A stretch of DNA of 39,162 nucleotides from a virus (lineage: Duplodnaviria > Heunggongvirae > Uroviricota > Caudoviricetes). Where the stretch lies: IMG/VR virus record IMGVR_UViG_2529293036_000024, one strand, 5' to 3'. Positions 1 to 3,000 of this stretch are shown here, in pieces (the stretch's first letter is position 1; each line of letters opens with the position of its first letter). The position numbers were made by a program.

Positions 1-3000
1 GATTGCTGGGAAGGCTGGGCCATGCTCCTCCGGCAGAAGCAGAAAAAGCTTATTATGCTTCCATCGGAAACGATGATCTGGCAGCCTGAGTTCACAGATA
101 AAACACTCTCCAGGAAACCCGGGGCGGTTCAGAAGGAAGGGTGGCAGCCTTATGGTAGTGCGCTGATTTCGACAGCTGGTTATGGTGCGGAGTTCATCCA
201 GCCAGTTGTGAGTGAGGGGAGCATCTCATCACCAGAGGAGCCAGGCAACCGTCCGACGACCTCAGCGCCTTCTGTTGCGCCAGAATATTACTATGTGATC
301 GCGCTTGCTGGTCAGTCCAATGGTATGTCATACGGTGAGGGACTGCCATTGCCGGATACATTCGACAGCCCTGATCCACGTATTAAACAGTTAGCGCGTC
401 GCAGTACGGTGACACCGGGCGGTGCAGTATGCAAATATAACGACATCATTCCGGCGGACCATTGTCTGCATGATGTGCAGGACATGAGCCGTCTTAACCA
501 TCCGAAAGCGGACCTGTCAAAGGGGCAGTACGGAACCGTGGGGCAGGGGCTGCATATCGCCAAAAAACTGCTGCCGTTTATACCGGCGAATGCGGGCATT
601 CTGCTGGTTCCGTGCTGTCGTGGTGGTTCAGCGTTCACCACCGGAGCCGATGGCACATACAGTGACGCGAGTGGTGCCTCGGAGAATTCAACCCGCTGGG
701 GTGTGGACAAGCCGCTGTATAAGGACCTTATCGGTCGAACAAAAGCAGCACTGAAGAAGAATCCGAAAAATGTGCTGTTTGCCGTGGTGTGGATGCAGGG
801 GGAATTTGATTTTGGCGGTACGCCGGTAAATCACGCCGCACAGTTTGGTGCGCTGGTTGATAAATTCCGTGCAGACCTGGCGGATATGGCAGGCCAGTGC
901 GTCGGTGGCTCTGCTGGCGGTGTTCCCTGGATATGCGGGGACACGACGTATTTCTGGAAGCAGAAGAACGAATCCACGTACCAGACGGTGTATGGCAGCT
1001 ATAAAAACAAACGGAAAAGAATATCCATTTCGTACCGTTCATGACGGATGAGAACGGGGTGAATGTGCCGACGAACAAACCGGAAGAAGACCCGGACATT
1101 CCGGGTATCGGATATTACGGTTCGAAATGGCGTGACAGCTCAGCCACCTGGACGTCACAGGACAGGGCGAGCCATTTCAGTTCATGGGCTCGCCGCGGGA
1201 TTATTTCCGACCGTCTGGCAACGGCGATTTTGCGCCATGCGGGAAGAGTGGCGCTAACGCGGGGGCATCATCGACAGTATCAGAGGTGCGCCCGTCATCG
1301 CCTTCCGGTGCAGAAGCCACAGGCGTCACAACACTGCTCTCTTACCTTGCCAGCGAGTCAGAGGGAAGCCTGAAAGTACAGGGATGGTCAGCCAGTGGCG
1401 GCAGGGCAGAAGTGGTCAGCGATGCGGAGGGAACCGGAGGTAAGGCAGTGAAGCTGACCAAGGAAGCCGGTAAAAGCAGCTGGGTGCTGGAGTACGCCGC
1501 GGGCAACGGTGCGGCTCTGTTACAGAAAGGGGGGCAGATTCGCTGCCGCTTTAAGGTTTCGGGAGCGCTGGCTGCGAACCAGTATGTTATGGCGTTTTAC
1601 TGGCCGGTATCTTCACTGCCACAGGGCGTTGCCCTGACCGGAGACGGGGGGAATAACCTGCTGGCAGCGTTCTACATCCAGACAGATGCAAAAGACCTGA
1701 ATGTGATGTACCACAATGCGAAAGTGGCGACAAACAACCTGAAACTGGGAACCTTTGGCGCATTTGATAACGAATGGCATACGCTGGCTTTCCGCTTTGC
1801 CGGGAATAACAGCCTGCAGGTGACGCCGGTTATTGATGGTCAGGATGGCACACCGTTCACGCTGACGCAGTCACCGGTCAGTGCCTTTGCGGCGGATAAA
1901 CTGCATGTGACAGACATTACCAGAGGTGCGACTTACCCGGTACTGATAGACAGCATTGCGGTGGAAGTGAACAGCACAGACACTGCGGCATGATAAAAAA
2001 ACCGCCAGCGACAGGAATGGACGCTGGCGGTGGTGATACCTATGGAGAAAAAATAAAGGAACGATACTTTCGTGCTCTGGTTTTTAATGAAAACAGTTCT
2101 TATTGTCAACAATAACGGAAAGAAATTATGACATTTCTGAACCAGTTAATGCTGTACTTCTGTACGGTGGTCTGTGTGCTGTATCTCCTTTCGGGTGGGT
2201 ACAGGGCCATGCGTGACTTCTGGCGCAGACAGATTGACAAAAGGGCCGCTGAGAAAATCAGCGCCAGTCAGTCAGCCGGAAGCAAACCCGAAGAGCCGCT
2301 CATTTAGCGGCAACTTTCTTAATCACACCTTTCGACGAGAAAATCCCATGTCAGAAATTACATCCCTGGTCACTGCAGAGGCAGTGAAGGACGTCCTGCG
2401 CTCTGAAGAAGTCCGGAGCGCACTGAAACAGAAACTTCGCCATAACCTGGAAGCGCGTCTTGATGCAGAAGTGGATGCCATTCTGGATGAACTGCTTGGT
2501 GTACAGGCAGAGCCACCGACTGAAGCGGGAGATACCACCGCAGAGAGCGGTGAAGTTCAGCCTGAATCACCGGTCGCCGATGCGACTGAACCTCAACCCG
2601 AATCGGTCATGATGCTGTAACGGGGAGTCAGGGCCATCAGTAAACAGCTGCTGGCCTTTTTCATGTTGTGAGCTTCCGGATTGCGGGAGACGGGGTATGT
2701 ACCAGATGGAAAAAATCACAACAGGTGTGTCATACACCACGTCAGCGGTGGGAACGGGCTACTGGTTCCTGCAGTTGCTGGACAGGGTTTCCCCGTCTCA
2801 GTGGGCGGCAATAGGCGTGCTGGGGAGTCTGCTGTTTGGTCTGCTGACGTACCTGACGAACCTGTATTTCAAGATTAAAGAAGACCGGCGTAAGGCGGCG
2901 CGGGGAGAGTAAGCTGATGAGCAGGAAATTCCGCTATGGTTTATCAGCGGTAGTTCTGGCGCTGATTGCCGCAGGTGCTTCTGCGCCTGAAATCCTCGAC

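Follow-up and report, generated by a model that had tools for sequence, protein, structure and literature searches.

NanS-p of phage 933W (L0105) is the closest described relative of the esterase studied here, and Pfam assigns to it the domains DUF1737, SASA and DUF6645 within one protein of 645 amino acids. The chromosomal NanS (YjhS) is a homologous esterase of known structure. The nanS-p gene and its place beside stx2 were previously known, and the same holds for insertions of IS629/IS1203 into it: these have been documented inside nanS-p of Stx2a prophages, e.g., in Sakai Sp5 and phage Stx2 II, and insertion of the element within nanS-p is known to contribute to the variability of the Q-S region (PMC10462455).

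The stretch of DNA analysed (the window, 39,162 nucleotides) represents bases 1-39162 of the draft whole-genome shotgun contig AIFH01000022.1 (102,450 bp) of E. coli DEC3D (GCA_000249315.2). The 329-aa product of 55-1044 matched a DEC3D protein, EHU80055.1, exactly, and this contig encodes it. Bases 1-4044 of the contig were equal to window positions 1-4044 in a direct comparison; the contig breaks inside an IS repeat, and its first base is window position 1. Megablast revealed an identity of 99.8-99.9% to Stx2a prophages of the 933W/Sp5 type. The nearest relatives suggest the serotype O157:H7 for DEC3D, in agreement with its membership in the DEC3 group, which we take to be O157:H7. The alignment to 933W stops at the attR core (38641/38642), thus the last ~520 bases of the window belong to the host chromosome. 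For base-by-base alignments, three references were used: O157:H7 ECP19-198, phage 933W and a draft contig of GCA_014955485.1. The last of these is an independently assembled draft that shares the IS junction of the window; along 11,971 bp, two A's and two SNPs are the only differences between the two. ECP19-198 carries a second IS1203 in the small terminase gene (33380-34632; window 5837-5842), which is present neither in the window nor in GCA_014955485.1; the DEC3D prophage is thus related to the ECP19-198 prophage, not identical with it. Position 2074 lies between the stop of nanS-p and the small gene that follows it. It is a G in the window and an A in ECP19-198, 933W and GCA_014955485.1, the sole substitution private to the window against these three. 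The tail-fibre gene (14839-16875) contains an internal repeat with an offset of 99 bp at 15867-16106; judged by the alignment offsets, the window has one 99-bp unit fewer than 933W and as many as ECP19-198.

From its sequence, the esterase gene at the start of the window is identified as nanS-p of a 933W-like Stx2a prophage. A preliminary description of this DNA had read it as a gene for a nanS-p-type sialate O-acetylesterase, and this assignment is confirmed by an identity to 933W L0105 over 132-1993 in every base except two A's and by the same set of domains. The locus is composed of the following features:

1 to 131, plus strand: right end of IS1203/IS629, with the orfB stop at 87-89 and position 131 as the last base of the right inverted repeat
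132 to 134, plus strand: right copy of the GAA target-site duplication, nucleotides 75-77 of the nanS-p coding sequence
135 to 1011, plus strand: nanS-p codons 27-318 in frame 1, with the last part of DUF1737 and the larger part of the SASA/NanS-like esterase domain, in which the GQSN serine motif lies
1009 to 1011, plus strand: first one-base deletion, frame 1 to frame 3, a run of three A's that is A4 in every relative
1012 to 1257, plus strand: nanS-p codons 319-400 in frame 3, where the esterase domain ends, with the conserved SHFSS, and the linker starts
1256 to 1257, plus strand: second one-base deletion, frame 3 to frame 2, AA in place of the AAA of every relative
1258 to 1993, plus strand: nanS-p codons 401-645 and the TGA stop in frame 2, with the linker and the C-terminal DUF6645

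Three ORFs span the gene, at 22-1044 (frame 1), 1041-1373 (frame 3) and 1184-1993 (frame 2). Pfam assigned a partial DUF1737 and SASA to the first product, no domain to the second and DUF6645 (E = 3e-75) to the third, a distribution that indicates a single gene spread over three frames rather than ORFs placed side by side by chance. The three-part architecture of NanS-p was therefore recovered, with its domains spread over three frames and DUF1737 truncated by the IS. Residues 72-393 of NanS-p aligned to the NanS structure PDB 3PT5 (E = 2e-117), the GQSN and SHFSS motifs included, while residues 423-640 were 100% identical to PDB 6YP6, deposited as 'NanS-p'. Over positions 132-1993 no substitution was observed against 933W L0105. 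The location is that of a lambdoid late region: a holin and a lysozyme gene follow downstream at 2697-3450, and in the annotation of ECP19-198 the stx2a A and B genes are located upstream of the IS, in line with the earlier expectation that nanS-p sits just downstream of a toxin locus outside the window. Directly 3' of the nanS-p stop, at 1995-2030, lies a GC-rich hairpin, CCGCCAGCG...CGCTGGCGG, with A7 before it. The minus strand of this hairpin scores as terminator-like (2014-2002, then T7).

A single intact frame for an active esterase was not found at this locus, which has an IS at codon 26 and two frameshifts in the deposited sequence. The true lesion of nanS-p in this lineage is the IS1203/IS629 insertion. 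Delimited in ECP19-198 against 933W, the element comprises 1310 bp with the terminal inverted repeats TGAACCGCCCCGG, and it was inserted after nanS-p nucleotide 77 (codon 26) under duplication of the 3 bp GAA: on the left flank the match to 933W runs through nucleotide 77 of the coding sequence, on the right flank it restarts at nucleotide 75. A size of 1.3 kb, inverted repeats and a 3-bp duplication are the properties of an IS3-family element, and a two-ORF transposase made by programmed -1 frameshift, as in the IS3 family, is annotated in ECP19-198, where its CDS ends at the equivalent of window position 89. The window itself holds the last 131 bp of the element, including the last 89 bases of orfB, and one copy of the duplication; the native start and the first 25 codons of nanS-p lie beyond the IS, outside the window. 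The ATG codons at 22, 55 and 73 are IS sequence in frame into nanS-p. Position 22, previously taken as the start of the gene, thus falls within IS1203 (window 1-131) and is not a start of nanS-p. Likewise, the GenBank entry EHU80055.1 (55-1044; 329 aa, 'putative 9-O-acetyl-N-acetylneuraminate esterase') has first residues derived from the IS. In the intact relative GCA_014955485.1 the IS-nanS-p fusion is predicted as an ORF of 640 aa (WP_000638224.1). The junction between IS and nanS-p is very rare: among 5,426 complete genomes ECP19-198 was its sole carrier, and a single other draft, GCA_014955485.1, had it as well. The disruption had been overlooked in the preliminary description because the window begins inside the IS, and the real lesion was hidden since the contig starts within a repeat.

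The two frameshifts are of a different kind. Against each of the three references, the window shows the same two deletions of a single A. The first one turns CAAAACGG into CAAACGG (A4 to A3) behind codon K318, within the esterase domain; past this point, frame 1 gives 10 aberrant codons and a stop at 1042-1044. The second one turns CTAAACG into CTAACG (A3 to A2) after codon L400 in the linker. Outside of these two missing A's, the alignment of positions 132-1993 to 933W is identical, and codons 26-645 are those of 933W NanS-p once both A's are put back. Switches from frame 1 to 3 near 1003-1020 and from frame 3 to 2 near 1250-1290 had been noticed before. The alignment to intact nanS-p homologues, then suggested as a check, places them exactly at 1009-1011 and 1256-1257 and reduces each to one missing A.

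The deleted forms were searched in other genomes. Among 5,426 complete E. coli genomes the first deletion (A3) was found at none of 1477 homologous places and the second (AA) at none of 1534; for both sites the best match was always 98.5%, equivalent to one gap. Scans for exact patterns yielded the first deleted form in no IMG/VR contig, with the intact 40-mer in 56 contigs, and the second deleted form in no IMG/VR contig either. Neither form occurred among the GTDB representatives and the JGI metagenomes. The two other assemblies with the IS junction, ECP19-198 and GCA_014955485.1, have kept both A's. A programmed or tolerated recoding event that restores the full-length esterase, by -1 frameshifting of the ribosome at both sites or by slippage during transcription, would agree with the direction of both shifts (-1) and with the A-rich sequence beside them (TAT AAA AAC AAA, 1000-1011). 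However, a single frame encodes the protein in every homologue, and the deleted bases are all that sets the window apart from these, so that the frameshifted arrangement is conserved at none of the homologous places (0/1477 and 0/1534). Runs of two to three A's fall far below the length needed for transcriptional slippage, the frame yields no canonical X XXY YYZ heptamer, and the native start of nanS-p has been cut off by the IS. We regard recoding as exceedingly improbable; programmed frameshifting or slippage was rejected on the lack of conservation among homologues and on the shortness of the runs.

The copy number of nanS-p opens another route to a frameshifted sequence. The 66-mers flanking the sites had a median of 2 matching places per complete genome, with a maximum of 6; several nanS-p copies may have collapsed in the assembly to a chimeric consensus, with indels contributed by a diverged paralogue. 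Against this stands that neither deleted form was detected in any paralogue of the complete genomes, the finding on which a paralogue-derived allele was rejected, and that the remaining coding sequence is the 933W allele, free of mosaic SNPs. A chimeric consensus is thus very unlikely. A pile-up of repeats that lowers the quality of the consensus could nevertheless have contributed to base-calling errors, and it is considered here as a contributor to these and not as a separate explanation.

Across the whole 39 kb, five indels were observed compared to ECP19-198, the nearest complete genome, all of them deletions of one base in mononucleotide runs, and no insertion: A4 to A3 and A3 to A2 in nanS-p, G8 to G7 at ~17206, T6 to T5 at ~21104 and T7 to T6 at ~38858. 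The shortened T run (~21100-21104) splits a gene for 205 amino acids, the homologue of 933W L0127, into 20957-21175 and 21097-21573. In complete genomes the T5 allele was found at none of 394 places. It was present in four drafts, AIFG, AIFH (DEC3D), AIFL (DEC4B) and AFDU (STEC_94C), which represent two backbones ~1.2% apart; one sibling draft of this group has a further deletion in lom (A7 to A6). The recurrence of the allele on different backbones, and in drafts only, points to a systematic base-calling error. The two nanS-p variants were seen in a single assembly and the T5 variant in a single group of drafts; independent assemblies of the same element lack them. The remaining two deletions are intergenic and may be natural length variants, since the short forms occur in some complete genomes: G7 at ~17199-17206 (G8 in ECP19-198 and 933W) in 63 of 310 complete-genome records, and T6 at ~38852-38858 (T7 in ECP19-198 and 933W) in 73 of 5,413. 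At the latter site, all eight O157:H7 genomes sampled, ECP19-198 and seven chromosome-scale records, have T7. The earlier statement that the other long genes of the window are intact holds for all ORFs of at least 350 aa, including the 8.4-kb ORF at 25996-34416, but the shorter gene at 20957-21573 is frameshifted at the T5 run. In the 'complete' O157 genome CP044143.1 (13921-20630), the 8.4-kb ORF with its LPD38 domain is called in three pieces of 404, 1254 and 892+ aa; drafts are thus not the only sequences in which this prophage shows frameshift-like breaks.

The two nanS-p frameshifts are most probably errors of the consensus or the base calling in the draft assembly and not biological, as far as can be read from the sequence comparisons. 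In the draft consensus, each of the two short A runs would have been called one A too short (A4 to A3, A3 to A2), and the pile-up of several nanS-p copies may have aggravated this. Under-calling of one base in homopolymers is typical for flow-based or early long-read chemistries, and the genomes of the DEC collection were reportedly obtained by 454-based sequencing. For classic homopolymer errors, runs of three or four A's are short, which counts against an error. Also, two of the five deletions fall within 5% of the window, a clustering expected from purely random error only ~2% of the time.

Genuine decay after the insertion, by two real one-base deletions in the DEC3D lineage once IS1203 had removed the start of the gene, has arguments of its own: in a nanS-p already disrupted by the IS, selection is relaxed and further lesions would be neutral, and the two deletions share one dead gene while the ORFs of at least 350 aa are all intact. 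In E. coli mutation-accumulation studies, neutral decay proceeds with about ten substitutions per indel. The 1.86-kb coding sequence exhibits two deletions and no substitution against 933W, and such a ratio speaks against decay. So do ECP19-198 and GCA_014955485.1, which have the same IS insertion and both A's, and the homopolymer frameshift in a gene without reason to decay that recurs in sibling drafts only. The absence of the deleted forms from complete genomes, IMG/VR, GTDB representatives and JGI metagenomes adds to this. We consider genuine decay unlikely. The preliminary description had preferred decay or slippage over poor sequence quality; this preference is not supported by a draft contig with five homopolymer deletions and another frameshifted gene, next to intact relatives that are marked by the same IS. 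The deletion-only homopolymer pattern, the absence of the deleted forms elsewhere and the intact IS-marked siblings together make an error likelier than gene decay, and from these observations we infer that error and not mutation was the cause. Real deletions would represent a stepwise erosion of the DEC3D nanS-p copy following its knock-out by IS1203, a doubtful scenario; if true, it would be a small natural case in which redundancy drives loss within the set of nanS-p paralogues that O157:H7 carries. The biological weight of the two frameshifts is small. The practical lesson is that frameshift "pseudogenes" in old draft assemblies should be checked in independent assemblies before decay is called.

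As in other drafts with homopolymer errors, the changes in the window are exclusively deletions of one base in mononucleotide runs, restricted to one assembly or four drafts; unlike the usual errors of this kind, the affected runs in nanS-p have just 3-4 bases. Chromosomal NanS (YjhS), the 9-O-acetyl-N-acetylneuraminate esterase of PDB 3PT5, is homologous to residues 72-393 of NanS-p, but it is a single-domain protein that lacks DUF1737 and DUF6645 and is not phage-borne. The alleles of Sakai Sp5 and phage Stx2 II likewise have the IS3-family element IS1203/IS629 inside nanS-p. In the Sakai-type phages the IS is located further into the gene, whereas the DEC3D-type insertion follows nucleotide 77 with a GAA duplication. 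The closest counterpart is NanS-p of 933W (L0105, AAD25447.1, 645 aa), whose C-terminal domain has been solved as PDB 6YP6. In the window locus, IS1203 separates codons 1-25, with the native start, from the remainder of the gene, and two one-base deletions are deposited, unlike in 933W. From nucleotide 75 of the coding sequence to the stop, both loci share the same DNA except for two A's, with the same domains DUF1737, SASA and DUF6645 and the same place between stx2AB and the lysis genes.
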